Shown: one piece after another, positions 1-49,520 of the stretch
Numbering within the stretch: the first letter of the stretch is position 1
Layout: each line of letters opens with the position of its first letter
Virus record (IMG/VR): IMGVR_UViG_3300020171_000007
Location: 1-52,148 of that record
DNA: 52,148 nucleotides
Direction: 5' to 3' (one strand)
From: a virus
Lineage: Duplodnaviria > Caudoviricetes
Translations under genes and position numbers: made by a program
Notes under the pieces: generated by a model
Database searches by the model: none
What the model was told of the DNA's origin: nothing
Seen by the model: only the letters and a program-made list of their open reading frames with translations

Positions 1-127
1 AAGGGGCCATTCCATTAGGGTAACCTATATCACTACAATTTCTCGCAGTGCTGGACTATATCTTCCACAATATCAGTGGTTCGACGTATAGTCTCTGAGG
101 GAACCTTACTTCCAAATCTTGTATTGG
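1..127. repeat. Terminal direct repeat (copy 1), likely circular assembly overlap
   Basis: 1-127 identical to 52022-52148. Confidence 0.95.
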
Positions 128-1024: not shown

Positions 1025-1039
1025 GTTTAATTGTTAAAC
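1025..1039. promoter_or_regulatory. Dispersed palindrome copy 1
   Basis: GTTTAA TTG TTAAAC, flanks AGTTT/GATCT. Confidence 0.85.
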
Positions 1040-2348: not shown

Positions 2349-2375
2349 AATCTGTTTCCTCCTTTGTTTGAGTTT

Positions 2376-2390
2376 GTTTAATCATTAAAC
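2376..2390. promoter_or_regulatory. Dispersed palindrome copy 2
   Basis: GTTTAA TCA TTAAAC. Confidence 0.85.
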
Positions 2391-2393
2391 GGA

Positions 2394-3132: not shown

Positions 3133-3133
3133 C

Positions 3134-7334: not shown

Positions 7335-7340
7335 TAGTCC

Positions 7341-7355
7341 GTTTAATGATTAAAC
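7341..7355. promoter_or_regulatory. Dispersed palindrome copy 3
   Basis: GTTTAA TGA TTAAAC. Confidence 0.85.
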
Positions 7356-7359
7356 AATC

Positions 7360-12548: not shown

Positions 12549-12563
12549 GTTTAATCATTGAAC
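12549..12563. promoter_or_regulatory. Dispersed palindrome copy 4
   Basis: GTTTAA TCA TTGAAC, overlaps stop of the 12555 gene. Confidence 0.8.
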
Positions 12564-14651
12564 GGACTGAGCCGCAGCCATCTTATCACGCCAACTAATG
12601 CCGCGTCGTCTAGCTTCACCAATAGGCATCTTTACTTGATAATTCATCCTTGGTAAATTCCACTTCTTATCCATATAGAGGCGATTCTTCTTGAGTAAGG
12701 CATCTACATCGAACCCCTCCTTAGCATGGATTAGAGTGAAGGTGGAACGACCTCTATGGTATATGCAAGTGTCGATTGCAAACTCTGTCTTGTATCCAGC
12801 TGCTCGAGTGGCTAAGTTGTAGTCGTTGTCATCCCACATTCCCATCTCGTAATTTGGATCGAGGAGTCCGACTATGTCTATTACTTCTCGCTTAATCACA
12901 CCACAGAGGAAGGCAACGAAAGGAGTGGCACAGGTACGACCACTGTAATGGGTTTCAAGATAGCGATTGATCTCTTCCATTGACATATTGAGTTGATTAG
13001 GGACTATAGTGTCATGCAATGAAAGACTATGATGAGAGTCCATCATTCCGTGGCCACGAGGGTCAGGCATAGTTAGTGAGCCTATGATCCCCATCCTTGG
13101 GTCACGCTTGAGGGCGTTGACTAGTTTGCCAAGCCAACCTTGGGATACTATAGTGTCATTGTTTAGGAGGCAGACAAAAGGTGCAGTAGATGCCTCTATA
13201 CCACGATTCACAGCCTCAACAAAACCTTCATTCTTTTCCAGCTTGATTGTTAGATGAGGCATATCTTGGATTACTTCTTCTACCTTCGACGTATCTTTGG
13301 AGGCATTATCTACCCAGATTAAACGGTAAGGTATGTGAGTGCACTCTCGAATGCTATTGAAGCAGGCTAGTGTTAGTTCAGTGTTTTCGTAGGTAGGCAC
13401 TATTATATCACAAGCTGCATTTTCCACTATATTTCCCTCTCCTCGTAATCCACGAAGGACGGCATCTAAATAGCCATAGTCAACATTCTTTACTTTACGT
13501 CCTGAAGGGCAGCGATTGTAGCTATTTCGGTCAAGCAGAGACAGTCCTTCTTCAATGCACTGCTCACCGAGTTCACATCCTGGGTATGGAGTGAAGAAGG
13601 CCCAGGAAGGCATCTCTGCATTAATGGTGTCAGCCATTCTTGCTGTAGCCTGGATGTCGGATTTAGTCTCCCAAGGTAGGCCGAGCATGTAGTTGGCGTA
13701 GATCTTAGCTCCTGTACTCCTGACTATCTTCGCCGACTCAAGATTTTGCTCTACAGTGGTTCCCTTCTTCATGAGATCAAGGATTCGCTGTGAGCCAGAT
13801 TCAAATCCTACGGAGACAAGTTCCCAGCCGACCTTAACTAATCGTTTTACTAAGTCTGGATGATCACAGACTCCATCGGCTCTGCATGAAGCCCAGAAGG
13901 GAAGGTCAATTTCAGGGTAGCGTTCAATGAATTCCTCAAGCCATTTAGGCTGGATTAGGAAAGTATCGTCGTGGATCATGATGCAGTCTGGATGGTAAGT
14001 ATCTTTGAGCATCTGAAGCTCAGCGATCATGCTATCTACAGAGCGCCGACGTAGTTTTCTGCCAAAGTGGTTGTGTTCGATAGGTTGACAGAAGGCACAT
14101 TCATAGGGACAGCCACGAGCTGCCATTACAGATATCATTCGCTCTCTTCCAGGACCATACCACCAACCTTTTACTGGTTCGACAGGGTCACGATAGATAG
14201 AACGATCCATGAAAGGGAGGAGATCGAGCTCTTGTGGCTTCTCTCCGAAGATTTCTCGGTCGAAACTCGAGGGATTAGCTAGGAATTTAGGGAAAGTGAT
14301 CTCACTTTCGCCGTGGAAGACGTAGTCTATGGAAGGATTTTCGAGGATTTGATCTGAAGCAGCCGTTACGTGGTAGCCGGCGACTAAAGTCTTTGCTCCG
14401 AGTTCTTTTGCGATCTTAATTACTTGCATACCGATAGAGTAGTAGGAGCTTTTGAGACCAAAAGATATTAAATCATATCCTTGGAGGACTAATTTTAATT
14501 CTCTATCATTGGACAGAGTCTTCATATCAAGAAAGTCTACATCACAACCAGCTTTTTGGGCGGCTGTGTAGGTCATGCCAGCGCCGTGGTCATGCCAGGC
14601 GTCTAGACCTTGTCCTTGATAGGGATAGAGAGCTATGATTAAGGTTTTCAT
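12555..14651 (-). CDS. B12-binding radical SAM protein fused to family 2 glycosyltransferase
   Basis: N-terminal cobalamin-binding-like domain (AGYHVT, GESE), RGCPYECAFC, DDTF, GFESGSQ, TPYPG; C-terminal GT2 IIVPTY, VDNAS, LLNNDT, WDDND. Confidence 0.88.
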   Translation of the reverse strand: MKTLIIALYPYQGQGLDAWHDHGAGMTYTAAQKAGCDVDFLDMKTLSNDRELKLVLQGYDLISFGLKSSYYSIGMQVIKIAKELGAKTLVAGYHVTAASDQILENPSIDYVFHGESEITFPKFLANPSSFDREIFGEKPQELDLLPFMDRSIYRDPVEPVKGWWYGPGRERMISVMAARGCPYECAFCQPIEHNHFGRKLRRRSVDSMIAELQMLKDTYHPDCIMIHDDTFLIQPKWLEEFIERYPEIDLPFWASCRADGVCDHPDLVKRLVKVGWELVSVGFESGSQRILDLMKKGTTVEQNLESAKIVRSTGAKIYANYMLGLPWETKSDIQATARMADTINAEMPSWAFFTPYPGCELGEQCIEEGLSLLDRNSYNRCPSGRKVKNVDYGYLDAVLRGLRGEGNIVENAACDIIVPTYENTELTLACFNSIRECTHIPYRLIWVDNASKDTSKVEEVIQDMPHLTIKLEKNEGFVEAVNRGIEASTAPFVCLLNNDTIVSQGWLGKLVNALKRDPRMGIIGSLTMPDPRGHGMMDSHHSLSLHDTIVPNQLNMSMEEINRYLETHYSGRTCATPFVAFLCGVIKREVIDIVGLLDPNYEMGMWDDNDYNLATRAAGYKTEFAIDTCIYHRGRSTFTLIHAKEGFDVDALLKKNRLYMDKKWNLPRMNYQVKMPIGEARRRGISWRDKMAAAQSVQ

Positions 14652-15610: not shown

Positions 15611-15625
15611 GTTTAATGATTAAAC
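15611..15625. promoter_or_regulatory. Dispersed palindrome copy 5
   Basis: GTTTAA TGA TTAAAC. Confidence 0.85.
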
Positions 15626-17006: not shown

Positions 17007-17036
17007 ATTATAACACACCTACATAGGAGATGTCAA
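17007..17036 (-). promoter_or_regulatory. Sigma70-type promoter driving the late arm
   Basis: TTGACA-18-TATAAT with extended TG. Confidence 0.75.
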
Positions 17037-17117
17037 GGCATATCTTCGTACATTTTAATAACCTAAATGGCCTAAATGTTAACTATTCTGAATCACCAGA
17101 CTGAAGCGGCTGAGATT

Positions 17118-17132
17118 GTTTAATCATTAAAC
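17118..17132. promoter_or_regulatory. Dispersed palindrome copy 6
   Basis: GTTTAA TCA TTAAAC between divergent promoters. Confidence 0.85.
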
Positions 17133-17297
17133 GATCTCACTAACTAATTCCAAAGGCGTAGCCTTTGTACCACAATGGGGGTTTATTAAATCTTTGGATA
17201 AAATGTGGAGCTGGTAACCCCGCGCACTATGGGATCAGAATCCCCCATCGACTTTTCGTCAATGATTTCAATAACATAGGCCTAGACAAAATAAACC

Positions 17298-17325
17298 TTG
17301 ACAATGTTGCTCAGTGTGATATGAT
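17298..17325 (+). promoter_or_regulatory. Sigma70-type early promoter
   Basis: TTGACA-16-TATGAT. Confidence 0.6.
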
Positions 17326-17914: not shown

Positions 17915-17929
17915 GTTTAATCATTAAAC
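17915..17929. promoter_or_regulatory. Dispersed palindrome copy 7
   Basis: GTTTAA TCA TTAAAC within longer CAATAGT...ACTATTG dyad. Confidence 0.85.
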
Positions 17930-18106: not shown

Positions 18107-18135
18107 TTGACATTGAAAGGTAGGTTGTGTATGAT
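18107..18135 (+). promoter_or_regulatory. Sigma70-type promoter
   Basis: TTGACA-17-TATGAT. Confidence 0.65.
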
Positions 18136-18372: not shown

Positions 18373-18915
18373 ATGTTGGTTCAGATAGATAGAGAAATGC
18401 CTATGTTTGGATGCTGGCTATGTGATAAGAAGTATCCAAGTATAGATGGGATGCCTATTCATGTAAGGTATGGAGTAGGAGAGGGTGTGTTGGTTAGACA
18501 TCTATGTGGTATAAGTAGATGTATTAATCCTATGCATTTAATGAGAGGTAGCGCTAGACAGAATACAGATGATAGAATAACCAAAGATCTTGTTATAACA
18601 GAGTACTTAAAGGATTTAATGAAAGGTAAGTTAAATACTCTATCTGAACCGATCTGCGATGATATAGAGTATTCCTACCTAAACATATTCAGTGAGTACT
18701 GGTTCTATAGATGGAAGATAGATAAAGGAATTACACAGAGTATGATAGAGGAAGAAGTAAATAGTAGATGGAGACTTACATTTAAGAAGATAATGGAGGA
18801 TGAAGAATATATAGAAGATATAGGTTTAGAGATATATAAAGATCAGATGAGAATGGCTATGATGTTAATGAGAGAGTTAAGACATAGAGATAATATAACT
18901 ATATTGGAGGTATGA
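18373..18915 (+). CDS. HNH-like nuclease domain protein
   Basis: VRHLCGISRCINPMHL...QNTDDR, His-Cys-type HNH pattern. Confidence 0.65.
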   Translation: MLVQIDREMPMFGCWLCDKKYPSIDGMPIHVRYGVGEGVLVRHLCGISRCINPMHLMRGSARQNTDDRITKDLVITEYLKDLMKGKLNTLSEPICDDIEYSYLNIFSEYWFYRWKIDKGITQSMIEEEVNSRWRLTFKKIMEDEEYIEDIGLEIYKDQMRMAMMLMRELRHRDNITILEV

Positions 18916-19403: not shown

Positions 19404-19418
19404 GTTTAATCATTAAAC
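19404..19418. promoter_or_regulatory. Dispersed palindrome copy 8
   Basis: GTTTAA TCA TTAAAC. Confidence 0.85.
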
Positions 19419-19551: not shown

Positions 19552-19580
19552 TTGACAAATGACTGAAGGTGTGTTATAAT
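19552..19580 (+). promoter_or_regulatory. Strong sigma70-type early promoter
   Basis: TTGACA-17-TATAAT, perfect consensus, extended TG. Confidence 0.8.
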
Positions 19581-20786: not shown

Positions 20787-20801
20787 GTTTAATCATTGAA
20801 C
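20787..20801. promoter_or_regulatory. Dispersed palindrome copy 9
   Basis: GTTTAA TCA TTGAAC. Confidence 0.8.
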
Positions 20802-21841: not shown

Positions 21842-22086
21842 AACTATGATTCACATCTGTAAGAGGTTCAAAACAGTCTTAAAGAGAAAAAAGATTAGAT
21901 ATATAGTAGCTTGTAGAGAATGTGGAAAGAAGCGGCTTCTTATATCAATGCATAGCTTAGCAAAGCCAAAGCATTCTCTTCCTATATAAATGAATAACTT
22001 GGATCAAATGTACCAAAATACACCTTTACTTTTGGTTGTAGGTGTGTTATATGTATTATAACAAATCATCAAATACCGAGGACTAT

Positions 22087-22518
22087 ATGCAAGGACAAGA
22101 TCCAAATAATACTGATGCAAAGAGATTCTGGTCTAAGGTAGATATTAAAGGCCCAGATGACTGCTGGAATTGGAAAGCGGCTTTAAGAGGAGAATACGGA
22201 AGTTTCTATCTTACAAGAATAGAACGATATGCACATAGAGCTGCTTGGATACTTACTAATGGAGAGATCCCTAAAGGTATGGACGTACTTCATAAGTGTG
22301 ATAATAAAAAGTGTGTTAATCCTAATCATCTTTATGTAGGAACTCAAGTTGATAATTGGAGAGACATAAAAGAAAGGTTATCTTATAATCTTAAAAAACG
22401 CTCACCAGAGGAAATAGAGCAAATAAGAGATTTAAGAAGCCATAAATTTACCTTATGTGAAATAGGAGAATTATTTAATATCCACCATTCTACAGTAATA
22501 AACTATTGTAGGCAGTAA
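22087..22518 (+). CDS. HNH endonuclease with C-terminal HTH
   Basis: RFWSKV, CWNWK, AHRAAW, VLHKCDNKKCVNPNHL...N; GAGG RBS before ATG 22087. Confidence 0.9.
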   Translation: MQGQDPNNTDAKRFWSKVDIKGPDDCWNWKAALRGEYGSFYLTRIERYAHRAAWILTNGEIPKGMDVLHKCDNKKCVNPNHLYVGTQVDNWRDIKERLSYNLKKRSPEEIEQIRDLRSHKFTLCEIGELFNIHHSTVINYCRQ

Positions 22519-22631: not shown

Positions 22632-22646
22632 GTTTAACAATTAAAC
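22632..22646. promoter_or_regulatory. Dispersed palindrome copy 10
   Basis: GTTTAA CAA TTAAAC. Confidence 0.85.
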
Positions 22647-24818: not shown

Positions 24819-25216
24819 TGAAACTCTACTGTGCAAACTGTGGAAAGCGACTGCAGATTACCAGGATAGCACTCCCTAAGTACTCAACAATAGTTGATGC
24901 TGCCCAGTGGCATGAGTGCTCAGCCGATATCATCCCTATCGAACTTCAGACTAACGAGTTTGCTCCAATCAAAGAGGGAAAAGATAAGTTTGTTCAATCA
25001 TTAAACGATCTTAGACCCTTAAGATCTGTTCCAATTTCTGAAGGCAAAGTAATCAGACCATCTTCAATGACTGGAACCGACACTCTCCGAGATCAACGAG
25101 TTGGTCTTGAGGATCAGCCCAAATCCTCTGCACCCACCTCTGTCTTATCAATGATAGAGAGAATGCATCCTACTGAACCTGCCAATGAGCTGAATGAACC
25201 TGAAAGTGGGGAATGA
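24815..25216 (+). CDS. Hypothetical protein with N-terminal CxxC
   Basis: YCANCG...HEC; overlaps HIRAN stop. Confidence 0.6.
   Translation: MMKLYCANCGKRLQITRIALPKYSTIVDAAQWHECSADIIPIELQTNEFAPIKEGKDKFVQSLNDLRPLRSVPISEGKVIRPSSMTGTDTLRDQRVGLEDQPKSSAPTSVLSMIERMHPTEPANELNEPESGE
24992..25006. promoter_or_regulatory. Dispersed palindrome copy 11 (intragenic)
   Basis: GTTCAA TCA TTAAAC with AGTTT/GATCT flanks inside ORF 24815. Confidence 0.8.
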
Positions 25217-28116: not shown

Positions 28117-28131
28117 GTTTAATCATTAAAC
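28117..28131. promoter_or_regulatory. Dispersed palindrome copy 12
   Basis: GTTTAA TCA TTAAAC. Confidence 0.85.
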
Positions 28132-31727: not shown

Positions 31728-31742
31728 GTTTAACCATTAAAC
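31728..31742. promoter_or_regulatory. Dispersed palindrome copy 13
   Basis: GTTTAA CCA TTAAAC. Confidence 0.85.
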
Positions 31743-33127: not shown

Positions 33128-33344
33128 AGTAATAAAGCTCACCCATGATTCCCTAATAGCTCTAATACAGGGAAAGAAGTTACATGTTATAGTTGAGGAT
33201 AGTCATTTCATTTTCTTACCTCCTACTGATAGAGTATTCGTAACTCATGAGCAGCTTATCGCTATGAGACATCAAGATCAGATGAGAGTACTTAACTTTA
33301 TAAGGTCTTTAGCTTCATATACACAGGAGGAGAAAGATGGCTGA
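33120..33344 (+). CDS. Hypothetical protein
   Basis: Overlapping neighbours in operon. Confidence 0.5.
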   Translation: MDKVIKLTHDSLIALIQGKKLHVIVEDSHFIFLPPTDRVFVTHEQLIAMRHQDQMRVLNFIRSLASYTQEEKDG

Positions 33345-33552
33345 CTTAGATGATCTCGGCTATCCATCAATCATAGATATGGAAACTGATGAGGCTATTG
33401 ACTTGCTCCGTCAGATCCGTCTATCTCGAAGGACGCCTGACAAGAAACCTTCAACTCGAACTACAACGAAGAAAACTTTAGCAAAGGTAACTACTGCGGT
33501 CGACGCTAACATGGCTGCTGAACTCTTAAGACTTCTCGGAGGAATACAATGA
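33337..33552 (+). CDS. Hypothetical protein coupled to ParB-MTase
   Basis: AGGAGG RBS; ATGA overlap with next gene. Confidence 0.6.
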   Translation: MADLDDLGYPSIIDMETDEAIDLLRQIRLSRRTPDKKPSTRTTTKKTLAKVTTAVDANMAAELLRLLGGIQ

Positions 33553-34895
33553 ACAGTATCCAAGTTGGCCGTGTCGGTATGGTATCTCCAACCCAAGTAA
33601 CCGTAACAGAAAATCGTGCCCGAGAGATCATGGGAGATCTAGATGAACTCGAAGCTAGCCTAAAAGAAAGTGGCCTCATCGCTCCATTAGCAGTGAAGGA
33701 TAATAAAGATGGAACCTTCACACTCCTCGCTGGTGAGCGGCGCTTTACAATTCTTCAGCGAAATCAGGTACCAGAGATTCCAGTTCGTATCTATGACCAA
33801 GATCTCTCTGATATAGAGATGAAGGTGATTGAAAAATCTGAGAATTTTTTCCGCAAAGATATGGAGTTTTGGGAGCTGGATAAACTCACCTTGGAAATCC
33901 ACAGGATGCAACAGGCTTTGCATGGAGCTAGTTCACCTGGCCCAGGGGACTCCGGCTGGTCTGTTGAAGACACCGGAGACATGATAGGTGGTGTGTCCAA
34001 AGCTACTGTCTCCCAGGCCATTAAACGGGCTGAGCTTCGTGAAGCTATTCCTGAAATCTTTGATGATTGTAAGACTGCAGCCGATGCACTCAAGTTGATT
34101 AAGAAACTCGATACGGCTGTACTCCAGCAAGCTCTTGCAAAGCAGATTGAGGAAAGGACTGAGACCGGCTCTTCGTTAATGCAGCTCTCAAAATCCTATA
34201 TTCTAGAGAATTGTTTTGTAGGGATTAAGAAAATCCCTGCTGGCGTGTTCCATCTTGTGGAAATAGATCCTCCTTACTCCATCAAGATCATGGAGCAGAA
34301 GAGAGCTGAAGGAGAGTCTCAGTATATAAAAGCTGATTACAATGAAGTTCCTGCCACCATCTACATGGATGGAGACGGACGTGATTGGCTTGGGATGAAG
34401 TATCTTTTCAAGGAGTGTTATAGGGTTATGACAGAGCACTCTTGGTTACTCTGCTGGTTTGGTCCGGAGCCTTGGTTTGAGGAGATGTATAATGCTATTA
34501 AGGGAGCAGGATTTGAAACAACAAGGATGTGTCCTATTTGGGTTAAGCCTTCTGGCCAAACCAAACAGCCGGAAACTAAACTCCCAAATTCATATGAGAT
34601 GTTCTTCTATGCCTGGAAGGGTCGTCCGGCTATTGCAAGACAAAGAGGTGGCAATACCTTTGTTTATTCACCTGTTCCACCGCAGCAGAAGTCTCATCCA
34701 ACTGAGCGCCCTCTCGATATGATGAAGGATATTTATGAGACCTTTGTCTTTCAAGGTTCTAGAGTTCTCATTCCTTTTCTTGGCTCCGGCTCTGGATTGA
34801 TTGCGGCTCATCAGTTAGGAATGACTGGCGTAGGATTTGAGCTGACCAAAGCATATAAGGATTCATTCTTGGTTAGAGCTCATTCGTTGAAATAG
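33549..34895 (+). CDS. ParB/Srx domain + HTH + amino (N6A/N4C) DNA methyltransferase fusion
   Basis: GLIAPLAV, LLAGERR, SENFFRKD; HTH WSVEDTGDMIGGVSKATVSQAI; DPPY, HPTERP, PFLGSG, GFEL. Confidence 0.88.
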   Translation: MNSIQVGRVGMVSPTQVTVTENRAREIMGDLDELEASLKESGLIAPLAVKDNKDGTFTLLAGERRFTILQRNQVPEIPVRIYDQDLSDIEMKVIEKSENFFRKDMEFWELDKLTLEIHRMQQALHGASSPGPGDSGWSVEDTGDMIGGVSKATVSQAIKRAELREAIPEIFDDCKTAADALKLIKKLDTAVLQQALAKQIEERTETGSSLMQLSKSYILENCFVGIKKIPAGVFHLVEIDPPYSIKIMEQKRAEGESQYIKADYNEVPATIYMDGDGRDWLGMKYLFKECYRVMTEHSWLLCWFGPEPWFEEMYNAIKGAGFETTRMCPIWVKPSGQTKQPETKLPNSYEMFFYAWKGRPAIARQRGGNTFVYSPVPPQQKSHPTERPLDMMKDIYETFVFQGSRVLIPFLGSGSGLIAAHQLGMTGVGFELTKAYKDSFLVRAHSLK

Positions 34896-34898
34896 TCT

Positions 34899-34913
34899 GT
34901 TTAATCATTAAAC
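34899..34913. promoter_or_regulatory. Dispersed palindrome copy 14
   Basis: GTTTAA TCA TTAAAC right after the ParB-MTase stop. Confidence 0.85.
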
Positions 34914-34935
34914 GATCTTGAATAAAGGAGCTTCA

Positions 34936-37455
34936 ATGCGACGAACTTTTGTCCCGCCCTCAGGTGACCCTTCAGCCAAACTTGCCGGCTGTGGGGAACA
35001 ACCAGGGTATCAAGAAGTACGCGCTAGACCACCTAAACCTTTCGTGGGTCCTGCTGGTCAGGGCTTAGACGAATGCTTGCTCATGACCAAGATTCCTAGA
35101 CGTGAGATTTATCTCACTAATGTAATCAAAGATCTTGATGCCCCACTCAAGCATTACATAGACCTAAACACCCGAGGAAGTTGGACTGTTTCGGCTGAAG
35201 GTCTTGAGTATATAAATGAACTGGGACGGGAGCTTCGGGCGCTCAGCCTCAATGTTATCGTAGCTTTCGGTAACATAGCCCTCCTCGCTCTCTGCAATAG
35301 GGTAGGGATTACTAAATGGAGAGGGTCTGTCTTAGAGTCCACTCTCGTCCCAGGTTTGAAGGTAATTCCTACCTTTCATCCTGCTACCTTCATTCCGCCA
35401 AAGTTTAATTTCCTAAACAAACCTATTATCTGCGAAGACCTTATGAGGGCTAAACATGAGTCTCAATCCAAAGACGTTAATAGAATTGCAAGATCTATCC
35501 ACACTCGCTGTGATTTTAATCAGACGATCAACACTCTCCGTCATTGCTACAGGGTCGGAAGACTTGGCCAGATCATTGGTATTGATATTGAAGTTATTAA
35601 CAGAGAAGTTGACTGTATAGGAGTTAGTTGGTCTCCAACCGAATCCATCTGCATTCCTCTCAGACATTCTGGAGGAGATTTCTTCACGCCAGAAGAAGAG
35701 CTCTCCATCATGCGAGGAATTGCCTATATCATCCAAGACGAAAACATAGCTAAGGTCGGCGCTTCTTTCATCTTCGATACTCAATTCTTATTCCACAAGT
35801 ATGGAATCGTCCCTCGTGGTGAACTCCACTGTACACAGATAGCACAGAAGATTGCTTATCCAGATTTTCCAGCCGGTCTCGATGCTGTCACCACTATGCA
35901 CACAGACATTCCTTACTACAAAGCCGATGGTAAGCAGTGGATGAAGATGGGGTATGGAACTTGGGATCAGTGGTGGAACTATAATGGTCTGGATGCTTTG
36001 GTTCCGGTAGATACTCTATCTAAGCAATTTGAAGTTCTCAAGCATCAGGGTAATGCTAAGACCTACGATAGGCAGCATAAGCTAATCAAGCCTCTCATCT
36101 ATATGTCTGAGCGTGGGATCTCTATTGATGTAGAAGGCATGATGATTTATGAAGGAGAACAGCACAAGATCCTTGATGAATTAGATCTTCAACTCAAAGC
36201 TGAAGTTGGCCGAGACATCAACTACAATTCACCCAAGCAACTGATGGAGTATTTTTACAAGGATCTTGGCATCAAACCTTATAAGAAGAAGAATGCTCAG
36301 GGAGCTTATAATGAATCAATAGATGTTGATGCTCTAAAACGCATTGTTAGACAGGGCACTAAGGCTTCAACCGCTGCTCGTATCATGTTAGATATTCGTA
36401 GCCTTAGTAAACGTATCTCTACTTATTTGAACATAGGAAAGGTGGATAAAGATGGACGCTATCGCTCAAGTTATAAGCCAGTTGGTGCTGAGACTGGCCG
36501 TCTTAGTTCTGGGGAGACAATCTTTGGTACTGGAGGTAATCAACAGAACTGGCCCCACGACTTACTCCGTTTCTTCCTCTTCGATGAAGGTTACATTGGA
36601 TACTCATTCGACCTTAGTCAAATTGAGAATAGAATTGTGGCCTATGTTGGAGGAGTCCTCACACAGATAGAAGCATTTGAAAAGGGTATTGACCTTCATA
36701 CCCTTACAGCCTCAATTATCTTCAACAAACCCTATGATCAGATCTCCAAAGTAGATGGATCATCATCTCTCGGTGACGGTCGTCAGAGTGAACGCTATTG
36801 GGGGAAAAAGCTAAATCATGGAACTAATTATGATGAAAGCTATAAAAAAGTCGCCTTAGTAAATGAATTACCTGAGTCTGAGGCCAAACAACTAATGGAG
36901 GAGATTCATCAAGGCTATCCTCAAATCCGGAGTGGTTATCATGCTACTATTCAAAATATGCTTAAGGAAAATAGAACCATTACGAACCTATTCGGTCGCA
37001 CTAGACTATTCCTTGGTCCAGTGTTTCCTTCTTATCCTAACGTCCCACAGCATGCTTGTACTGAGACGTACAGACAAGCCTATGCCCAACTCCCTCAATC
37101 TACTTGTGCTGATAAGATAAATGAGCAAGGGCTGGAATATATCTATTACAATCAGCACTTGTTTAGACCATTAGAATTGTTAGCACAGATTCATGATTCT
37201 ATTGTATTTCAGATTCCTCTAACTATCCCATGGGAAGAGCATGCTAGGATGCTTCTGTTGATTAAAGCATCACTTGAAACTCCTTTATTCTGGCATGAGA
37301 GAGAGATCAAAACTCCGGTTGATCTGGCTATGGGAAAAACTATGTGCAAAGAAGAAATGACTGAGATGAAAAGTAAAGATATCCCAAGCAGTGAGTCCGA
37401 GCTAGCTCTAAAGCTGGAATCGATCTATACAAAACTCCTCTCGAAGAAAAGCTAA
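34936..37455 (+). CDS. polA: Family A DNA polymerase with N-terminal family-4 uracil-DNA glycosylase-like domain
   Basis: UDG: GEQPG, PFVGPAG, TNVIK, FHPA; exonuclease GIDIE, YNGLD; polymerase TGRLSS, DLSQIENR, R...KKLNHG..Y, QIHDSI. Confidence 0.93.
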   Translation: MRRTFVPPSGDPSAKLAGCGEQPGYQEVRARPPKPFVGPAGQGLDECLLMTKIPRREIYLTNVIKDLDAPLKHYIDLNTRGSWTVSAEGLEYINELGRELRALSLNVIVAFGNIALLALCNRVGITKWRGSVLESTLVPGLKVIPTFHPATFIPPKFNFLNKPIICEDLMRAKHESQSKDVNRIARSIHTRCDFNQTINTLRHCYRVGRLGQIIGIDIEVINREVDCIGVSWSPTESICIPLRHSGGDFFTPEEELSIMRGIAYIIQDENIAKVGASFIFDTQFLFHKYGIVPRGELHCTQIAQKIAYPDFPAGLDAVTTMHTDIPYYKADGKQWMKMGYGTWDQWWNYNGLDALVPVDTLSKQFEVLKHQGNAKTYDRQHKLIKPLIYMSERGISIDVEGMMIYEGEQHKILDELDLQLKAEVGRDINYNSPKQLMEYFYKDLGIKPYKKKNAQGAYNESIDVDALKRIVRQGTKASTAARIMLDIRSLSKRISTYLNIGKVDKDGRYRSSYKPVGAETGRLSSGETIFGTGGNQQNWPHDLLRFFLFDEGYIGYSFDLSQIENRIVAYVGGVLTQIEAFEKGIDLHTLTASIIFNKPYDQISKVDGSSSLGDGRQSERYWGKKLNHGTNYDESYKKVALVNELPESEAKQLMEEIHQGYPQIRSGYHATIQNMLKENRTITNLFGRTRLFLGPVFPSYPNVPQHACTETYRQAYAQLPQSTCADKINEQGLEYIYYNQHLFRPLELLAQIHDSIVFQIPLTIPWEEHARMLLLIKASLETPLFWHEREIKTPVDLAMGKTMCKEEMTEMKSKDIPSSESELALKLESIYTKLLSKKS

Positions 37456-38661: not shown

Positions 38662-38676
38662 GTTTAACCATTAAAC
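38662..38676. promoter_or_regulatory. Dispersed palindrome copy 15 at the convergence of the two arms
   Basis: GTTTAA CCA TTAAAC. Confidence 0.85.
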
Positions 38677-38680
38677 AAAC

Positions 38681-41600
38681 TTATCTAGCTCTAAGCTTAC
38701 CAACCTCTATCTTGAATTCATCAGAGATAACTCCTCCAGCTTTCTGGACTATATCTATCTCACTCTGAATCTGTGCTCTTTCAGCCTCTCCAGCCCTATC
38801 AAATCTCTGAACAAATAATCTAGCTCTAGCCTCTGTATCTGGCGTTCCCTTCAAGGCCAACCAGAAGGAGCGGTTAGGTAATCCCTTAATGTTTTCTTGG
38901 AACTTAAAACGATCTTTCAGCCGATCATAAGTATCACGATCCTTTGTTGCGGCTGCAGTTTTGGTAATATAGTCAATGACCTCTTTCCTTGACGTACCTT
39001 CTTTGTAAAGGTAAGCTTCAACAACTGTGTCTAGGCCTCGATTCTCTATCCACCTTTCAAGTGTACTCATTGCCCTAGCATCTGCAACCGGCTGAGCGTA
39101 TTGAGAGTAAGGATTAGTAATCCCAATGAATCTTTTGACAACTGGAATCTTTGACAAAGCCTCAGCCAGATGCATCTCTTTCTTATCCTTAGGAAGATCA
39201 CCTAGCAGCTTCTCATATCCTTGCCCAACAAGCCAACTCCACATAGACCCACCTGTTATTAGTTGCTCTACTGCAAACTTAGTACGCTCAGGAGACATAC
39301 CTGTTAATGCACCAAAGTCAATAGCAGCTTGAGGAGTCTGACCTGGAATGTATTCCTCTTTACTCTGAGGCCAGCCTAGAGGTTTGTCAGTCTTCTTCCA
39401 AATATCTTCATCGAGCCAGAAGTCTTTATTAATAACATAACCAAACACTGCACCAGCAGTAGGTGGCAATGAACTAATTCCAACCGGAGATAGCTGTGTC
39501 AATGAGTTAGTAACAGCCTCAACATCTACAGGATTTCCTAACCATTTATCAGTGCAGGCCTCAAAAAAAGTCTTAAAAAACTTCTGTCCAGGATCGATAG
39601 GGATCTTGAAGTAAGGATACCTTGTCTGTCCTTTCTCATCAAGGAAACTAAAGCCATCACCGAGAGGAATGACTAAGTTATTTTGCATATCTATATTACC
39701 CTGCAGAGCCTCCATAGTTTCTGGATTAAGCTTCCTATTGGCTATATAGAGACCAGATACAAGCGCTGCAAACTGAGCAAGTTTGTATGTAGAAACAAGG
39801 GCCGTTCCACTACCTGGTTTGAAAGCCCTGAACATTCCCCTTGTACCCTGAACAGCTGCATTAAGATAAGGTATCCCATTATCAAGGGCTTTAGTAATCC
39901 CTCCACCTTGACCAAAATCCATATAATCACGAGCTGCAAATGTAGCCTCTTGTGTAATCTTCTTATCCTTCAAAGCTTCTTCAAACGAGATGCCTTGTTC
40001 GTTAGCTCTGTTTCTAATAACTCTTTCACGGATAGCCAGCCTAGTCATGATCTCAGTCGTCTCACCGAAGTAACCTAGAAAATCCTGAACCTTATCAATC
40101 CCACTCTCAATATGTCTACCACGTTGGAGTAGTCTTCCTTGATGGACTAAGAACTCCATCCCTCCGCCTTCTCTGATATAGTCTTCATATCGACCTTTGC
40201 GAAGTATAGCATCACCAAAGATAGCTGCTTGATCTCTAGCCATCTGAAGACCGAACATAGGGAGATTAGGACTATAAGTAGATCTCCATGCCTTTCCATC
40301 GAATTCTCTGGCTGTGTACCAAGTATGCATTACATCTCTGGGTAGATTGGCTAGAGCAAATCCCCAGTCTATTCCAGTAGCAAAGGTTCTTAACACTGGA
40401 CTTCCAGATGCATAACGTAGGAATTGACTAAGCTTATAACTCATCTCAGGATTATTAGTAATCCATTCTCTAGCCATCTCAGGAGATAGATAAATAGCTT
40501 TACGTTCACCCTTTTCATATACAAAGATACGGTCCCATCCTGAAGGAATCCTATCTTCAGGTTTCTCCTTAACTGCAACAAAAGGATTATCCGGCTGAGT
40601 CCTTGCAAGATCAAGTAGATTCTTATTAGCTGCATTATTAAGTATGCGACCATAAGCTCTATTGAATACCTCTAAGGCCATAACCTCAGATGAAGGCTCA
40701 AAGATATCCGTATCTCGTCCATGGGCTAAGGACTCAACACCTGAGTCATAGACAGTTCGAGTACGCTTACCTATCTTAGATTGATAGCGTTTGTCAAAGA
40801 CATCAACAAGTTTGATTCGACGGTAGTTGTGGGATGCTAATGCATCGTGCTCTTCAGAGGAAATCAACTCAGCATCGAGCATATCTTTCAAAGGCTTCTT
40901 CATCCAATCGAAGTAGGCTCCAGCTCGCTGGTTTAATATCTCAGCGCGTTCAGGAGATAGTTTCTCTGTATATTGGAAGAGTTCTTTATATGAAGCAGCC
41001 TCGACTGGCGTGAGACCTTCGGGAAAACTAAACTGTTTAGTTGTCTTATATTTCCCAATGTCTAGCATACGATCAGCGAGGATCAAGTTATCAAGAATCC
41101 TTTTTTCATTCTTACTCAGTCCATCATAGACCTCTCCACGCATCTGCTTGAGTTGCTGAGCTGCAAGCGATGAGGCACCTTTACTTAGATACATCTTCTG
41201 GATAATCTCATAGCCATCGTTACCGAGTTGATCAAGTAACTCTCTTCGTATATTTCCAGACCTATCAACGAAAGATCTGGTTAGTTCTTCTTTAGTTCTT
41301 TCAATAGCCTCGCCAGGCTTAAAAGCTTTCATCCCTCGTGCCTTAGCTGTATAAGCAGCAAGGGCTTTAGCACCCTCGACTATTTTCTTAGTTGCTTCGG
41401 TAGGATCTAGGCCCATATAAAGGCTGAGTCCAGAGGGGTGTGTCTTTGTTTTGCCTGTTATATAACTAACTGCTGATTTAAGTCCATTTACATCCTCTGC
41501 TTCTAACATCCTATCTAGCGTCTCCCAAGGAGGTTCAGCTTTCCTCTGCTCAGGAGTCATCTTCCTTCTCCACTCACTCAACCTAGATTCCATCTCACCA

Positions 41601-44600
41601 GGGTCTTTCAAATAACTTTCAGTACCTGATTTAGTTATATACTTATCTACAGTATCTTTTAAAGAACTCATTTCTTCTGCAGCCCTAGTCTGTAATCCAT
41701 TTATTATATCACTTACACTTTTAGCTTTCATACCCATATTAAAAGCTATATCTATATTTTCAAGCTCCCTTTTTAATTCTGGTGTTTTAGCCCTGCTCTT
41801 TAGTTCTTTTAAGAAAGCATCAAGAATCTTTGCATTTTCAGCCTCAGGACTAGTCCCTCTAAATCTCGACTTCATTATCTCATTCACAGCATGCTGAGTT
41901 TCATGAACAAAGGTATCTTGCCAATCTCCACTTATATGAATTGTTCTAGTTTTATCATCATAGTATCCATTCTCACTCTTCTTCTTAGATTCTTTATTTA
42001 TATCTACTTTTACTTCTCTAAGCTCTGGAATAGCTTTAAGTAACTTCGAGTCACCTATATAAGCTGGAAGATATCCATGTGAGATATTCCCTTTATTTAC
42101 ATGATCTATAGTACTCTGGCTTAAAGGTTTAATATCTTCTGGACCTATCTCATATCTCCACTTTCCATCTTTTGCTAGCCAATAGCCAGTCTCTTCAAAG
42201 ACCTCTCTATTACGATAAAGATCATCAACATAATAAGGGTTCTTTTCTGTGCCTATATTTCTAGTCCCTACTTTAATTTTCTTAAGAAGATCCTTCACCA
42301 TCTGAGGAGCTTCACTGATAGGAATCATCATGTTAAGCTGTATCCCACCACCAGTTCGTGCTGCAGCTAATCTACTTTTAACATCTCTACGTTTTAACTC
42401 CCAATCAGCACTACCAGATACCATATCTTTAGATTTTAAGAATGTTTGCCAACCTTCAAGAAAAGCACGATTTAATTTTGCACCACGTCTTAATTCAATA
42501 GAACCTATATCAATGCCTAAATCTAGTGCAGTTTCATATACTGTTTGACGTAGCGACTGGCGTTTTTTATATGTCCAGCTTCCAGGCATGACTGGTTTAT
42601 CTGACAGAGCAGTAATAAGATCTATAAGTTTAGGTAGGTCTTTATCTTTCATTATATTTTTAGGGTGTAGTTGATAGTCACCACGTACATCAGCAAGCAT
42701 CTTACCCCATTGATCTTTACTTAACTTAAAGATATCCTTAATCTGAGTAGGATCAACTCCCATATTAAAAGTTGTTCCACCCCCAGTCTTATCTATCCTA
42801 TCCTGAACCTCATCCAGCTGCTTCTCAAGCTTTGCTATAAGCTCATCATTAGGCTTATCTGCATTATTTTCCTTCTCAAGTCTATTCTCAATCCGCTCAA
42901 GTTCGTTCTCCAACTTTTCTACTGGTGAGTAGACTTTATTCTTCAATTCCTCTTGAACTCTAAAGTGACCATAAACATCTTTCTGTTGAAAAGGTTTAAG
43001 TTTATCAAAGGTTGTATGATAGAAATCCTTAACATATTTAGCTAGTTCTATAGGATCAACTCCCATAGTTAGTTTTGCTTCAGTTCGTTTAATTGTTAAA
43101 CGATCTGATTGTCTCGCCCACTTAGCAGCCTCTCTCACAGTATCTTTCCAAGCTCTGAAGTCGACTGTCTTATCAAACTTAGTCTCAAGATTATCAGCCC
43201 TTGTTGCTAACTCACTCAGCCCATTCCTAACCTTATCAATAGGAACATCTTCCCCATTGAGATAGCGATTAGCTTCGTTGATTAAGTAACGTGTGAAAAC
43301 CTCAGGCGTTGCATCTATTTTATCAATCTTGTCTTGCATCAACTTCTTAAGATTATTAGTATGCTCAACATCTGAGTTACGAAAAGGATGATTGTCTTGC
43401 TTGAGTGCCTCAGGTTCAGGCGTTCCAGTCTGGAGGTCTAGATCGGTGATTGGCAAAAATTTCTTTTTTGCTTTTAGTTTAGCTTTCGGCTCACGAATAT
43501 ATCTCCCATCTTCCCTTTTTACAAAATCTGTTTGTCTATCAAAGAACCCAGTCGCATCTACAACAGGACTTGTCTCTATTCGTAGATTATTTTGATCTGC
43601 AACCTGTCGAATTTGATTTAGGATCTTAGTTCCTTCTCCTTGCCGTCTTAAATCCTTAGGAATTTTTATAGTATCCAGACTAATACCTTGTGTTCCATCA
43701 GGATAATATATTGCGGAGAACTTAAAAGGCACATTAGGATAGTCAGACTGTATCTTTTCCTGTAAAGCAGGTACTACATCTATTGCCTTTCCCTCCACTC
43801 TCTTCACTTTAACTTTAGCTTTCAGCTTAGCCTTAGGCTCTATAATCTCTAGATCAGCCCTTGGAGCAGCCTCAATCTTATCCCCTTCCTCCAAGATAGC
43901 TCTCAAATCAGGATCGAGTTCTTCAACTTTAATCTCAGGCTCTTTTCCTTCTTTAATATCTTTGACCTCCTGCCCCTTCACCTCAAGCTCTGCTTTTGCC
44001 TCTATTGCAGCCTTAGCTTTTTCCTCAATCCTCTTCGCCTCAAGCTCAATCTGAACCTTCTCAACTTCAGCTACTTTAACCTGAGCCTGCTGTAATACTT
44101 CAGAAGGAATCTGCTCACCCTCTGCTGGAGACGGTGGAGTCTTAGCCTTATCAATCCTTGTATTAAGATCAGTTAAATCCTGTGCTACCTCAAATCTCAT
44201 ATTCTTTGGTAGTCCTTTATAGAGAAAGAATGTATCTAAAGCTATATCAAATAAGACATCACCCATAGGCCTATCGGTAAAAGGATTACCGCCGACTTCA
44301 GCCGCTCTATATGCATTAAGCCCTACCAATCCAGTAAGGATTCTGGCTCCTGTATCCCATCCTTCCTTAGGAAACATCCCTCTTGATGCACCGAAGATAG
44401 TCCCAATCATAGCGCCAGACTTAGTACCTTCCCAGATCTTTCCTGCAGCTTGAGTAAAGGTAACTTGTTCAAGAGCTTCACCGGTAGCTGATAGACCAAG
44501 CGCTGGACCTAACAAGACAGAGTCTCGTAAAGCACTCTTAAATATACGAGAAGCTACAGCCTCATTCTGGAATGCTTTAGGAAGGAAATTTAGAACAGGC

Positions 44601-45448
44601 TTAACTAACTTCCCTGCTATCATTATAGGAGCTGTATAAAGTCCAGCTAATGAGCCAAGTGCTTCTCCTACATAACCTGGAGTGTCTGTAGCAGGAAATT
44701 CTACTTCACCTATCAAGCCTTTTTTGATGGCTGGAGCAAGACCAAGCGTTGACATTGAGATGAAGGAACTAGCAGCCTTCTCAACAAACTCAGGCGACTG
44801 TCGATACTTATCCAGAGGAATACCTTCCTCTTTAGCCATGTGCATTACTAAGGCTTGAGCCTTAGCACCTTCTGATAAACCCCTTACATTCTCAACGCCG
44901 AACAAACCAGTGAGAGCATCAATTCCTCGTTCGATGAAGTTAGGTTTATCATCACTCCGACTAATGCTTTGAACCGGCTCAAGAAACTCTTCATATCCTT
45001 CAGGTACATTACTCTTCCCTGGATATGTAGTAGTTCTTATCCCACCTTTGATTGTAGAAGTTACTTGCATAGACATTGAAGGAGCACCTTTCCAGGCCTC
45101 GTCAATGTCAACCTCTTTCTTTCTCAAACTACGCCGCATAGGAACAGCTTCACGTTTAATAGCTTCACGCTTAGCTGCTTCCTCTGCCACACCAGGCATC
45201 AACTTACCAAACAAAGCTATAGGATCATAAGCTTCTACATTGATAGGAGGTTCAGCCGGAGTAGGAGTCTTAACAACCTCCTTTGGAGTATCAGGATCAA
45301 GCAACTCAAGATCGGCTCTCCTTTTTCTCCTCCCTCCAGCTGCAATTTCCCTAGCCAGTTCATCAGGATCCTGTCCGGTAGGGACTTTTATATCAAAAGG
45401 TGGTAGGTTAGAGTTAGGCTCCAACAATTCAAGATCAGCCCTCATCAT
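38681..45448 (-). CDS. Large polyvalent internal virion/ejection protein (GNAT-like, LPD23-like, zincin-like HExxH and LPD38-like regions)
   Basis: LRRQGEGTKIL; ETGYWLAKDGKWRYEI; FVHETQHAV...YLKDPGEMESR; DFGQGG..PYLNAAVQG; last gene of the virion arm. Confidence 0.75.
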   Translation of the reverse strand: MMRADLELLEPNSNLPPFDIKVPTGQDPDELAREIAAGGRRKRRADLELLDPDTPKEVVKTPTPAEPPINVEAYDPIALFGKLMPGVAEEAAKREAIKREAVPMRRSLRKKEVDIDEAWKGAPSMSMQVTSTIKGGIRTTTYPGKSNVPEGYEEFLEPVQSISRSDDKPNFIERGIDALTGLFGVENVRGLSEGAKAQALVMHMAKEEGIPLDKYRQSPEFVEKAASSFISMSTLGLAPAIKKGLIGEVEFPATDTPGYVGEALGSLAGLYTAPIMIAGKLVKPVLNFLPKAFQNEAVASRIFKSALRDSVLLGPALGLSATGEALEQVTFTQAAGKIWEGTKSGAMIGTIFGASRGMFPKEGWDTGARILTGLVGLNAYRAAEVGGNPFTDRPMGDVLFDIALDTFFLYKGLPKNMRFEVAQDLTDLNTRIDKAKTPPSPAEGEQIPSEVLQQAQVKVAEVEKVQIELEAKRIEEKAKAAIEAKAELEVKGQEVKDIKEGKEPEIKVEELDPDLRAILEEGDKIEAAPRADLEIIEPKAKLKAKVKVKRVEGKAIDVVPALQEKIQSDYPNVPFKFSAIYYPDGTQGISLDTIKIPKDLRRQGEGTKILNQIRQVADQNNLRIETSPVVDATGFFDRQTDFVKREDGRYIREPKAKLKAKKKFLPITDLDLQTGTPEPEALKQDNHPFRNSDVEHTNNLKKLMQDKIDKIDATPEVFTRYLINEANRYLNGEDVPIDKVRNGLSELATRADNLETKFDKTVDFRAWKDTVREAAKWARQSDRLTIKRTEAKLTMGVDPIELAKYVKDFYHTTFDKLKPFQQKDVYGHFRVQEELKNKVYSPVEKLENELERIENRLEKENNADKPNDELIAKLEKQLDEVQDRIDKTGGGTTFNMGVDPTQIKDIFKLSKDQWGKMLADVRGDYQLHPKNIMKDKDLPKLIDLITALSDKPVMPGSWTYKKRQSLRQTVYETALDLGIDIGSIELRRGAKLNRAFLEGWQTFLKSKDMVSGSADWELKRRDVKSRLAAARTGGGIQLNMMIPISEAPQMVKDLLKKIKVGTRNIGTEKNPYYVDDLYRNREVFEETGYWLAKDGKWRYEIGPEDIKPLSQSTIDHVNKGNISHGYLPAYIGDSKLLKAIPELREVKVDINKESKKKSENGYYDDKTRTIHISGDWQDTFVHETQHAVNEIMKSRFRGTSPEAENAKILDAFLKELKSRAKTPELKRELENIDIAFNMGMKAKSVSDIINGLQTRAAEEMSSLKDTVDKYITKSGTESYLKDPGEMESRLSEWRRKMTPEQRKAEPPWETLDRMLEAEDVNGLKSAVSYITGKTKTHPSGLSLYMGLDPTEATKKIVEGAKALAAYTAKARGMKAFKPGEAIERTKEELTRSFVDRSGNIRRELLDQLGNDGYEIIQKMYLSKGASSLAAQQLKQMRGEVYDGLSKNEKRILDNLILADRMLDIGKYKTTKQFSFPEGLTPVEAASYKELFQYTEKLSPERAEILNQRAGAYFDWMKKPLKDMLDAELISSEEHDALASHNYRRIKLVDVFDKRYQSKIGKRTRTVYDSGVESLAHGRDTDIFEPSSEVMALEVFNRAYGRILNNAANKNLLDLARTQPDNPFVAVKEKPEDRIPSGWDRIFVYEKGERKAIYLSPEMAREWITNNPEMSYKLSQFLRYASGSPVLRTFATGIDWGFALANLPRDVMHTWYTAREFDGKAWRSTYSPNLPMFGLQMARDQAAIFGDAILRKGRYEDYIREGGGMEFLVHQGRLLQRGRHIESGIDKVQDFLGYFGETTEIMTRLAIRERVIRNRANEQGISFEEALKDKKITQEATFAARDYMDFGQGGGITKALDNGIPYLNAAVQGTRGMFRAFKPGSGTALVSTYKLAQFAALVSGLYIANRKLNPETMEALQGNIDMQNNLVIPLGDGFSFLDEKGQTRYPYFKIPIDPGQKFFKTFFEACTDKWLGNPVDVEAVTNSLTQLSPVGISSLPPTAGAVFGYVINKDFWLDEDIWKKTDKPLGWPQSKEEYIPGQTPQAAIDFGALTGMSPERTKFAVEQLITGGSMWSWLVGQGYEKLLGDLPKDKKEMHLAEALSKIPVVKRFIGITNPYSQYAQPVADARAMSTLERWIENRGLDTVVEAYLYKEGTSRKEVIDYITKTAAATKDRDTYDRLKDRFKFQENIKGLPNRSFWLALKGTPDTEARARLFVQRFDRAGEAERAQIQSEIDIVQKAGGVISDEFKIEVGKLRAR
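43087..43101. promoter_or_regulatory. Dispersed palindrome copy 16 (intragenic)
   Basis: AGTTC GTTTAA TTG TTAAAC GATCT inside the 6.8 kb gene. Confidence 0.85.
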
Positions 45449-47617: not shown

Positions 47618-47632
47618 GTTTAATGGTTAAAC
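47618..47632. promoter_or_regulatory. Dispersed palindrome copy 17
   Basis: GTTTAA TGG TTAAAC. Confidence 0.85.
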
Positions 47633-49505: not shown

Positions 49506-49520
49506 GTTTATCAATTAAAC
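49506..49520. promoter_or_regulatory. Dispersed palindrome copy 18
   Basis: GTTTAT CAA TTAAAC with AGTTC/GATCT flanks. Confidence 0.75.

Follow-up and report, generated by a model that had tools for sequence, protein, structure and literature searches.

To our knowledge, no DNA site, ligand or role is known for proteins that fuse a ParB fold to a DNA methyltransferase (MTase). KorB of plasmid RK2 has 12 OB operators and shows cytidine triphosphate (CTP)-clamp behaviour. ParB-MTase fusions are among the commonest phage ParB architectures, and here we consider one encoded by IMG/VR virus record IMGVR_UViG_3300020171_000007, whose whole length of 52148 nucleotides (nt), hereafter the window, was analysed; this phage record is 100% complete, carries direct terminal repeats and has a guanine-plus-cytosine (GC) content of 42%. 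The fusion gene is followed by a palindrome that recurs throughout the genome, and the clade to which the window belongs supplies a concrete candidate for a cognate site. Overall, we believe that the data are best explained by a model, one we hold to be evenly poised between right and wrong, wherein the ParB-helix-turn-helix (HTH) half of the fusion addresses its MTase cargo to phage DNA by way of these palindromes.

A survey from 2025 lists the pairing of a ParB CTPase with an N6/N4-MTase as a phage-enriched fusion and proposes, loosely, an anti-defence role; the accessible part of its text gives no DNA site, mechanism or nucleotide binding for the fusion (PMC12704722). On the same accessible text, the fusion in the window is the survey's fusion, sharing the Pfam pair PF02195 and PF01555, carriage by a phage and the lack of a ParA partner, while the window clade, unlike the fusion as surveyed, adds an apparently co-evolving, genome-wide palindrome lattice and a fixed place beside PolA. 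Cluster O mycobacteriophages such as Corndog carry more than 30 copies of an unexplained 17-bp palindrome, TGTTCGGNNNCCGAACA; the accessible text of their description predicts a dimeric protein on the repeats and does not link the ParB-like gp90 to them (PMC4351075). Should the address model hold, the window clade would provide the first cognate-site system for the abundant ParB-MTase fusions, and with it a means of marking viral DNA as self or non-self.

Domains and predicted structure of the fusion

Taken together, motifs, Pfam families and fold matches place GERR and ENxxR boxes, a probable ParB-type HTH and a DPPY amino-MTase in one protein, as the initial annotation of this DNA had it. 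The parts are:

33549..34895 (+), fusion gene of 448 amino acids (aa): ParB N-terminal domain (NTD), ParB-type HTH and beta-class amino-MTase, from the open reading frame (ORF), Pfam ParB_N and N6_N4_Mtase, the AlphaFold2 (AF2) model and fold matches
33570..33848 (+), ParB/Srx-type NTD with nucleoside triphosphate (NTP)-binding fold, about residues 8-100, including Box II GERR (residues 62-65, 33732-33743), from Pfam, the Noc/ParB alignment and invariant residues
33840..33854 (+), Box III ENFFR, residues 98-102, from the sequence, with E95, E98 and N99 invariant and R102 nearly so
33963..34046 (+), HTH, residues 139-166 (helices 139-145 and 151-166), from modelled secondary structure, fold match and the covariation peak
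34251..34892 (+), beta-class N6/N4 amino-MTase domain, from Pfam, the genome profile search, fold search and complex prediction
34893..34895 (+), stop codon TAG

ParB_N (PF02195) covers residues 23-95 (E 1.1e-9, 38.7 bits, cut-off 26.3; 40.9 bits in the profile search of the genome record), N6_N4_Mtase (PF01555) covers residues 235-439 (E 9.4e-16, 58.9 bits, cut-off 26.7; placed at 34251-34865 by the genome search), and the PHROGs family 'ParB-like partition protein', phrog_4715, spans residues 8-204, the HTH stretch included. When solved structures were searched by sequence, GERRF aligned to AGERRW of Noc and ENFFRKD to its ENLQREE. The nucleotide-pocket residues R23, R25, G62, R65, E95, E98 and N99 are invariant in 116 family sequences, as are D240, G412 and G414 of the MTase. 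In the latter, motif IV (DPPY, residues 240-243, 34266-34277) precedes motif I (FLGSG, residues 410-414), and the module is a circularly permuted beta-class amino-MTase, probably directed at N6-adenine, as DPPY, rather than SPPY, suggests. The stretch VLIPFLGSG (residues 406-414, 34764-34790) had been singled out as an unusual S-adenosylmethionine motif; it proved ordinary, the consensus of the 116 sequences being VLVPFLGSGN. Since the MTase domain is conserved clade-wide with intact catalytic motifs, it is under selection. The absence of a ParA, noted at the outset, was borne out: neither PF13614 nor PF01656 matched anywhere in the complete 52148-nt record (0 matches each), with control profiles matching 14 of 14 genomes.

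An AF2 model built from 116 family members (predicted local distance difference test, pLDDT, 92.8; predicted template-modelling score, pTM, 0.80) replaced an earlier one from 11 sequences (pLDDT 60). Searched by fold, its C-terminal half (about residues 220-448) matched beta-class amino-MTases at E-values from 1.9e-13 (CcrM) to 2.2e-10, with N4CMT, M.BceJIV, M1.HpyAVI, M.MboIIA and M.RsrI among the further matches, while its N-terminal 200 or so residues matched C-terminally truncated Noc and ParB at E 4.7e-9 and weaker. Foldseek aligned about 200 columns to the NTD and DNA-binding domain (DBD) of Noc, ParB and KorB, and KorB (8qa8, 8qa9) was among the fold matches of the earlier, poorer model.

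The fusion is also predicted to form a symmetric homodimer, with an ipSAE interface score of 0.68 versus 0.00 for the best of 3 controls, at least 94% of contacts shared between runs and a partner pLDDT of at least 73. The predicted interface is confined to the MTase domain, at residues 306-372 and 398. The mark used here is reached by 20 of 30 solved homomers and by 1 of 23 solved single chains, and the pass may mirror likeness to known folds, because beta-class MTase dimers have already been solved. If the predicted dimer is real, the MTase replaces the missing ParB C-terminal dimerisation domain, and pairing through it would provide the two-fold symmetry that a palindrome requires.

The palindrome lattice in the window and its relatives

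The initial annotation placed the fusion at 33549-34913, which is correct at the gene start and too long at the other end; the last base of the gene is 34895, and the stretch up to 34913 includes the palindrome. That a palindrome directly follows the stop, and that it belongs to a lattice, were both upheld: 18 copies with at most 2 mismatches occur in the window versus 0.29 expected, and 0 of 100 shuffles reach 18. The copies, to which no strand is assigned, are:

34899..34913, GTTTAATCATTAAAC, beginning 3 nt past the fusion stop and 22 nt ahead of the PolA ATG; 25-nt form at 34894-34918
1025..1039, copy with 1 mismatch
2376..2390, copy
7341..7355, copy
12549..12563, copy with 1 mismatch, at a gene junction
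15611..15625, copy
17118..17132, copy in the divergent early-promoter region
17915..17929, copy
19404..19418, copy
20787..20801, copy with 1 mismatch
22632..22646, copy with 1 mismatch
24992..25006, copy with 1 mismatch, within a 133-aa ORF
28117..28131, copy
31728..31742, copy with 1 mismatch
38662..38676, copy with 1 mismatch, between the convergent primase and giant ORF; position kept in relatives
43087..43101, copy with 1 mismatch, within a 2255-aa ORF; position kept in relatives
47618..47632, copy with 1 mismatch
49506..49520, copy with 2 mismatches

Over about 25 bp the conserved form reads AG(W)TC-GTTTAAT-N-ATTAAAC-GA(W)CT. On the ORF map, fifteen of the 18 copies are intergenic, most often 3-4 nt past a stop codon and shortly ahead of the following ribosome-binding site, a placement seen in all three gene blocks; two others fall inside ORFs and one at a gene junction. 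The 2255-aa ORF (38681-45448, -) has hardly any family match (weak LPD23, phrog_9854) and could possibly encode a virion or ejection protein.

Palindromic, intergenic elements 3-4 nt past stop codons might be RNA hairpins, serving as processing sites, stabilisers or terminators and leaving the fusion uninvolved. We nonetheless consider this very improbable. The predicted hairpins have energies of -1.8 to -7.0 kcal/mol with z-scores mostly above -2, they lack a U tract and are not picked up by a terminator scan, and changes in a single arm go uncompensated within genomes; together these features favour a protein site at the DNA level. Furthermore, two copies are inside ORFs, one of them at a position kept in relatives, and each genome uses one sequence that shifts in concert between lineages, something that a bare structure does not need.

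Neither intrinsic terminators nor sigma-70 promoters were supported as identities for the palindromes, given the weak hairpins without a U tract and the position of the promoters elsewhere. Near-perfect or perfect sigma-70 promoters occur away from the palindromes at 17036-17007 (-), 17298 (+), 18107 (+) and 19552 (+); the copy at 17118 sits between two divergent perfect promoters, and others are 150-190 nt upstream of promoters. These four promoters (within 17007-17325, 18107-18135 and 19552-19580) read TTGACA-16..18-TATAAT/TATGAT, three of them with an extended TG, and early transcription is probably carried out by host RNA polymerase. The canonical parS consensus is TGTTNCACGTGAAACA. It was not found in the window, where 2 matches at 3 mismatches compare with 0.82 expected. 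GATC and other short palindromes were tried as methylation targets and set aside, 12 of 296 GATC sites lying in motif flanks with no telling bias. Overall, the pattern points to a DNA site for a dimeric, phage-encoded and co-evolving reader, rather than to an RNA structure or a host promoter.

The fusion itself is widespread. An exhaustive, profile-free search returned 7764 family representatives at E<=1e-3 and at least 750 at E<=1e-30, and nearly all of the best 150 matches are full-length, at 36-62% identity. Among deposited phages, 3 of 278 matching records cover at least 80% of the fusion; the best match is Desulfofustis phage LS06-2018-MD01 (39.6% identity), and megablast of the window against deposited phages found no close DNA relative. 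Of 73 viral contigs anchored on PolA, 71 include upstream sequence, and in 70 of these PolA is immediately preceded by the fusion; the arrangement recurs in more distant relatives with PolA 37-47% identical. This constant position indicates that the fusion is a core gene of one large phage clade, with SU10-like capsid and portal and genomes of 45-52 kb. A further 21 fusion loci in a genome collection are all on metagenome-assembled-genome contigs of at most 49.7 kb that resemble binned phage genomes.

A clustering detector that requires at least 3 sites was applied to 106 non-redundant fusion-bearing loci of at least 12 kb; it replaced an early strict detector that was blind to AT-only motifs, and detectors based on 7-nt arms with a 5-15 nt spacer or on 11-mer neighbour graphs were both too noisy. 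At least 3 sites were found in 76 of the 106 loci versus 0 of 109 shuffles, and 36 of these 76 loci have a site no more than 200 nt past the fusion stop. The sequence is lineage-specific, its half-sites changing in concert while the copies agree within each genome, and the flanks in relatives are of the AGWTCG or CTWTG kind. The variants are:

GTTTAAT.ATTAAAC, window and close kin
GTAAAAT.ATTTTAC, relatives
GTTCAAA.TTTGAAC, relatives
GGTAAA types, relatives
GTCCCAA.TTGGGAC, Desulfofustis phage, 9 copies

The single PolA-anchored relative without the fusion (L074) gave no match to it in its whole 32-kb record (67% complete) and shows no palindrome lattice there either; a gene for an NAD-dependent epimerase/dehydratase (7491-8654) holds the fusion's position. 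Gene gaps in this record are 0-15 nt around PolA and downstream and become larger further upstream, and the joint loss of fusion and lattice counts as a single event.

A second informative genome, G002, was found by a motif-anchored scan of viral contigs. This IMG/VR record (the one behind loci L218 and L254-L256; 46093 nt, GC 56%) resembles the window only in a weak likeness of its uracil-DNA glycosylase (UDG)-exonuclease and PolA, and carries 20 copies of the core GTTTAAT-N-ATTAAAC (shuffle mean 0.08, maximum 2), many of them immediately upstream of gene starts. No N6_N4 MTase occurs in the whole 46-kb record. Directly upstream of its UDG-exonuclease gene, G002 encodes a 444-aa protein (2018-3352, -) with a PF17762 HTH_ParB match (E 2.7e-6), GFRR and ENIDRED boxes and a Lys/Ala/Glu-rich tail. 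Relatives of G002 number 0 among viral contigs and one among metagenome contigs, the 8-kb L265, which has a PF02195 ParB_N protein (E 2e-9) in the matching position, a palindrome 9 nt before the start of that gene and a perfect copy nearby. In its first half, the recognition helix is S-N-A-W-I-T-Q for G002, S-K-A-W-V-S-Q for L265 and S-K-A-T-V-S-Q for the window, where the full predicted helix is S-K-A-T-V-S-Q-A-I-K-R-A-E. The lattice is independent of the MTase fusion as such, and the earlier expectation that phages bearing the motif carry the fusion fails in G002, although a ParB-HTH protein is still encoded there. Four other genomes from the motif-anchored scan (G003-G006) lack the fusion, but these fragments stop short of the PolA region and are uninformative.

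The PolA of the window (34918-37455, +) has an N-terminal extension with a weak match to a separate UDG and 3'-5' exonuclease protein of L265, whose UDG-exonuclease/polymerase region occupies 4342-5898 and 7007-7992; by this match, the polymerase appears split into UDG-exonuclease and PolA genes in G002 and L265.

Which part of the fusion follows the palindrome

For 64 unique proteins, we computed partial correlations between palindrome distance and distance within 15-aa windows, holding the remainder of each protein constant. The covariation peaks at 0.36-0.37 in windows 121-135 and 148-162, the latter on the recognition helix, and is about 0 across the MTase domain. Within the 39-member 'AIKRAE' (KR) subclade the peak lies at 139-165 and rises to 0.54 (window 139-153), with equally variable windows elsewhere at about 0. 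The lineages of the window clade that have other cores carry other helices, such as SHASLIQ, TDASVST, SPATVTE and DRTTISK. One family member with helix SKATVSQ and a DLKLAE tail (P0020) could not be placed, its own contig not being among the viral contigs (best match 48% identical). Associations between residues and bases (His with GG, Gln with non-GT, Pro with C, and T[DNG] with AATTAAAT) all run in the expected direction; the pairs were chosen after the data had been seen, on a tree built without the DBD. Suggestively, the divergence of the palindrome follows that of the HTH region rather than that of the MTase, a signal that is lost in the sister-pair control described below.

By these comparisons, recognition of the lineage-specific palindrome seems not to reside in the MTase, which the ParB half would instead bring to phage DNA: the MTase is hard to cast as the sequence reader because the cargo varies, being an MTase in one lineage and a basic tail in another, and because MTase divergence is blind to the palindrome. 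The general pathway under the address model can be sketched. Two copies of the fusion would pair via their MTase domains, in place of the ParB C-terminal dimerisation domain, and the paired HTHs would bind the palindrome, as ParB does on parS, Noc on its NBS sites and KorB on its OB operators. That the fusion dimerises in this way and sets its two HTHs on the 25-bp palindrome is the part to which we lean. Each lineage's palindrome would co-evolve with its ParB-HTH reader, and the ParB-HTH half would act as the address module for an exchangeable cargo, which is the MTase in the window and a tail rich in Lys, Ala and Glu in the G002/L265 lineage. In its most general form, that of a programmable 'genome address' device with a private 25-bp palindrome (about 10-20 copies) in each lineage and swappable C-terminal cargo brought solely to the phage's own DNA (a dimeric adenine MTase for most lineages, a histone-like tail for G002 and L265), the idea is tentative. 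Nucleotide (CTP) binding may then close the N-domains into a clamp that leaves its site and slides, spreading methylation over the phage genome for anti-restriction or self-marking; this step is modelled on the conserved Box I-III residues and, by homology, on ParB, Noc and KorB, and we regard it as doubtful. If the ParB half does load at the palindromes, the CTP-clamp paradigm of these proteins extends to the targeting of DNA-modifying enzymes. The natural specificity variants (GTTTAAT, GTAAAAT, GTTCAAA, GGTAAA, GTCCCAA), together with the natural swap of cargo, make the question testable without the uncultured host.

At the same time, several observations weigh against the address model. In the other subclade (n=25) the covariation peak falls at 115-141, off the recognition helix. 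Across 31 contrasts between sister pairs, windows 175-225 score highest, with values of just 0.19-0.35 over the HTH. At the level of whole proteins, with PolA controlled, the fusion (0.28) does no better than a neighbour of about 70 aa (0.28), other proteins ranging from -0.10 to 0.23. The residue/base tests comprise 1-5 independent pairs each, too few for significance, the pairing of Lys with GTTTA showed no association in the independent-pair test, and the GTTTAAT core is found with many different helix sequences. Pfam HTH_ParB (PF17762) does not match the window fusion at E<=0.1, and the family consensus at Box II is GGRR, so that the Glu of GERR represents a minority state among the 116 homologues. 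For the clamp in particular, N6N4-MTase fusions were chosen for the nucleotide-binding screen of the 2025 survey; its accessible text names 11 binders, none of them such a fusion, and NTP binding was absent in 17 of the 28 proteins purified (PMC12704722). The comparative evidence has weaknesses of its own. Fewer than 3 sites were detected in 30 of the 106 fusion-bearing loci, some of which have two clear copies. The complete genome of Microcystis phage Mel-JY34 (GC 59%), which shares the synteny of the window clade and has a fusion only 24% identical, shows no detectable lattice; the co-occurrence of fusion and motif proposed initially thus stands in the 76 loci and in their joint absence from L074, and breaks down in Mel-JY34. 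Fusion and lattice are both clade-wide traits, which makes their co-occurrence largely one evolutionary event, and G002 and L265 may be very distant members of the window's replication-module lineage, and so not fully independent of it.

The neighbour with the equal correlation is a 71-aa ORF (33337-33552, +) of no known family, whose stop overlaps the fusion start codon (ATGA) and which is kept in 34 related loci. It could be a partner of the fusion or an alternative reader. Of 10 small ORFs examined, 9 lack a PHROG match and the tenth matches only an uncharacterised family; there are many such small ORFs, and the reader could be among them. This leads to an unlikely but substantial alternative, in which the fusion is an ordinary orphan anti-restriction MTase whose ParB half serves for non-specific DNA binding or as a nucleotide switch, and the palindromes are read by another small phage protein, or by a host factor, to control gene expression. 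The many uncharacterised ORFs, the failure of the sister pairs to single out the HTH, the fusion-bearing genomes without a detectable lattice and the position of sites between stop codon and next ribosome-binding site in all three gene blocks speak for this alternative, and the ParB_N plus N6_N4 MTase pairing is common, with at least 750 family representatives at the stricter threshold, and is, in the accessible text of the survey, phage-enriched and proposed to act in anti-defence (PMC12704722). Against it, the sole relative without the fusion is also without the lattice, the GC-rich G002, which has the same core, likewise carries a gene for a ParB-HTH protein whose recognition helix is similar, and the loci examined share no further protein recognisable as DNA-binding. 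A shared host-factor reader is hard to reconcile with GC contents of 42% and 56% and with palindromes that are lineage-specific among close relatives. If the ParB half does not load, the fusion is just another orphan anti-restriction methylase, and some other reader must be sought for the lattice.

The ParB-HTH half might also bind the palindromes mainly to control transcription globally in the manner of KorB, to form a roadblock to it, or to organise the DNA as a scaffold, with methylation secondary and not spread by sliding. We judge this quite unlikely as a full account, and yet it reads the site positions just as naturally as the address model does. In both the window clade and G002, sites immediately precede ribosome-binding sites and gene starts, one is set between divergent perfect sigma-70 promoters with others 150-190 nt upstream of such promoters, KorB itself is among the ParB-type fold matches, the G002 lineage keeps the ParB-HTH protein without any MTase, and divergence of the MTase domain does not follow the palindrome. 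It is less easily squared with sites at conserved positions inside long ORFs and with an MTase whose clade-wide conservation and intact catalytic motifs bespeak selection.

Other features of the genome stand apart from these questions. Residues 631-693 of the SU10-type portal protein (1000 aa, 3134-6136, -) match LAGLIDADG_3, a hint that an intein or homing endonuclease has been inserted. The late-gene block contains a protein unusual for a phage (698 aa, 12555-14651, -), which joins B12-binding, radical SAM and family-2 glycosyltransferase domains. The early/replication block holds two ORFs that resemble HNH-type homing endonucleases (18373-18915 and 22042-22518, both +), the second with HTH_38.

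Relation to known systems

Regardless of which role prevails, the fusion can be set beside several described systems. The ParB half has its best sequence and fold matches in Noc and chromosomal ParB (7nfu, 7ng0, 7ol9, 7bm8, 6sdk, 7bnk), over residues of about 20-210, and shares Box II and Box III with them; it differs in having no canonical parS, no ParA and no ParB C-terminal domain. The MTase half (residues of about 220-448) shares its fold, the order of DPPY before FxGxG and the predicted symmetric dimer with the beta-class enzymes CcrM (6pbd), M.BceJIV (8urk), N4CMT (8s9o), M1.HpyAVI (5hfj), M.MboIIA (1g60) and M.RsrI (1eg2). Identity to these beta-class enzymes is only 14-19%, and the fusion is set apart from them by its N-terminal ParB module and by a short segment between the YEMFFYAWKG strand and HPTERP. 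M.EcoGII and M.EcoGIX were tried as ParB-fused precedents and dropped, the accessible text of PMC7736820 not describing them as such.

KorB offers the closest parallel in layout, being an orphan-like ParB-family protein with NTD and HTH that reads about a dozen dispersed copies of a short palindrome, some of them close to promoters, on a replicon of 50-60 kb, and the 18 copies in the window show the many dispersed palindromes on one replicon that mark multi-site ParB regulators. KorB alone has its own C-terminal dimerisation domain, a KorA partner and a repressor function, whereas the window alone has a C-terminal MTase, a 25-bp palindrome and a lytic-type phage as its setting. A ParB homologue is coupled to a post-replicative DNA-modifying enzyme in the ParB-dependent phage thymine dioxygenases (5mYOX) too, as far as their accessible description goes; the ParB of the window differs in being fused to its enzyme and in retaining the HTH (PMC13229309).

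The Cluster O phages are unrelated to the window and, on the accessible text, resemble it in combining a genome-wide palindrome lattice and an orphan ParB_N protein with the lack of parA (PMC4351075). Corndog gp90 (AY129335, 54424-55932; 501 aa) matches Pfam ParB_N only and, unlike the fusion in the window, has no MTase domain. By analogy, gp90 and the Corndog repeats may be a parallel pairing of ParB and lattice, and the address model, if true, might account for this and other unexplained phage palindrome lattices. In the literature searched we found no description of a ParB-MTase fusion tied to a co-evolving, genome-wide palindrome lattice. In this context, the architecture of the fusion is already known, and it is the comparative picture, that of a lattice that appears to follow the ParB-HTH half rather than the enzyme attached to it, that seems to be new.

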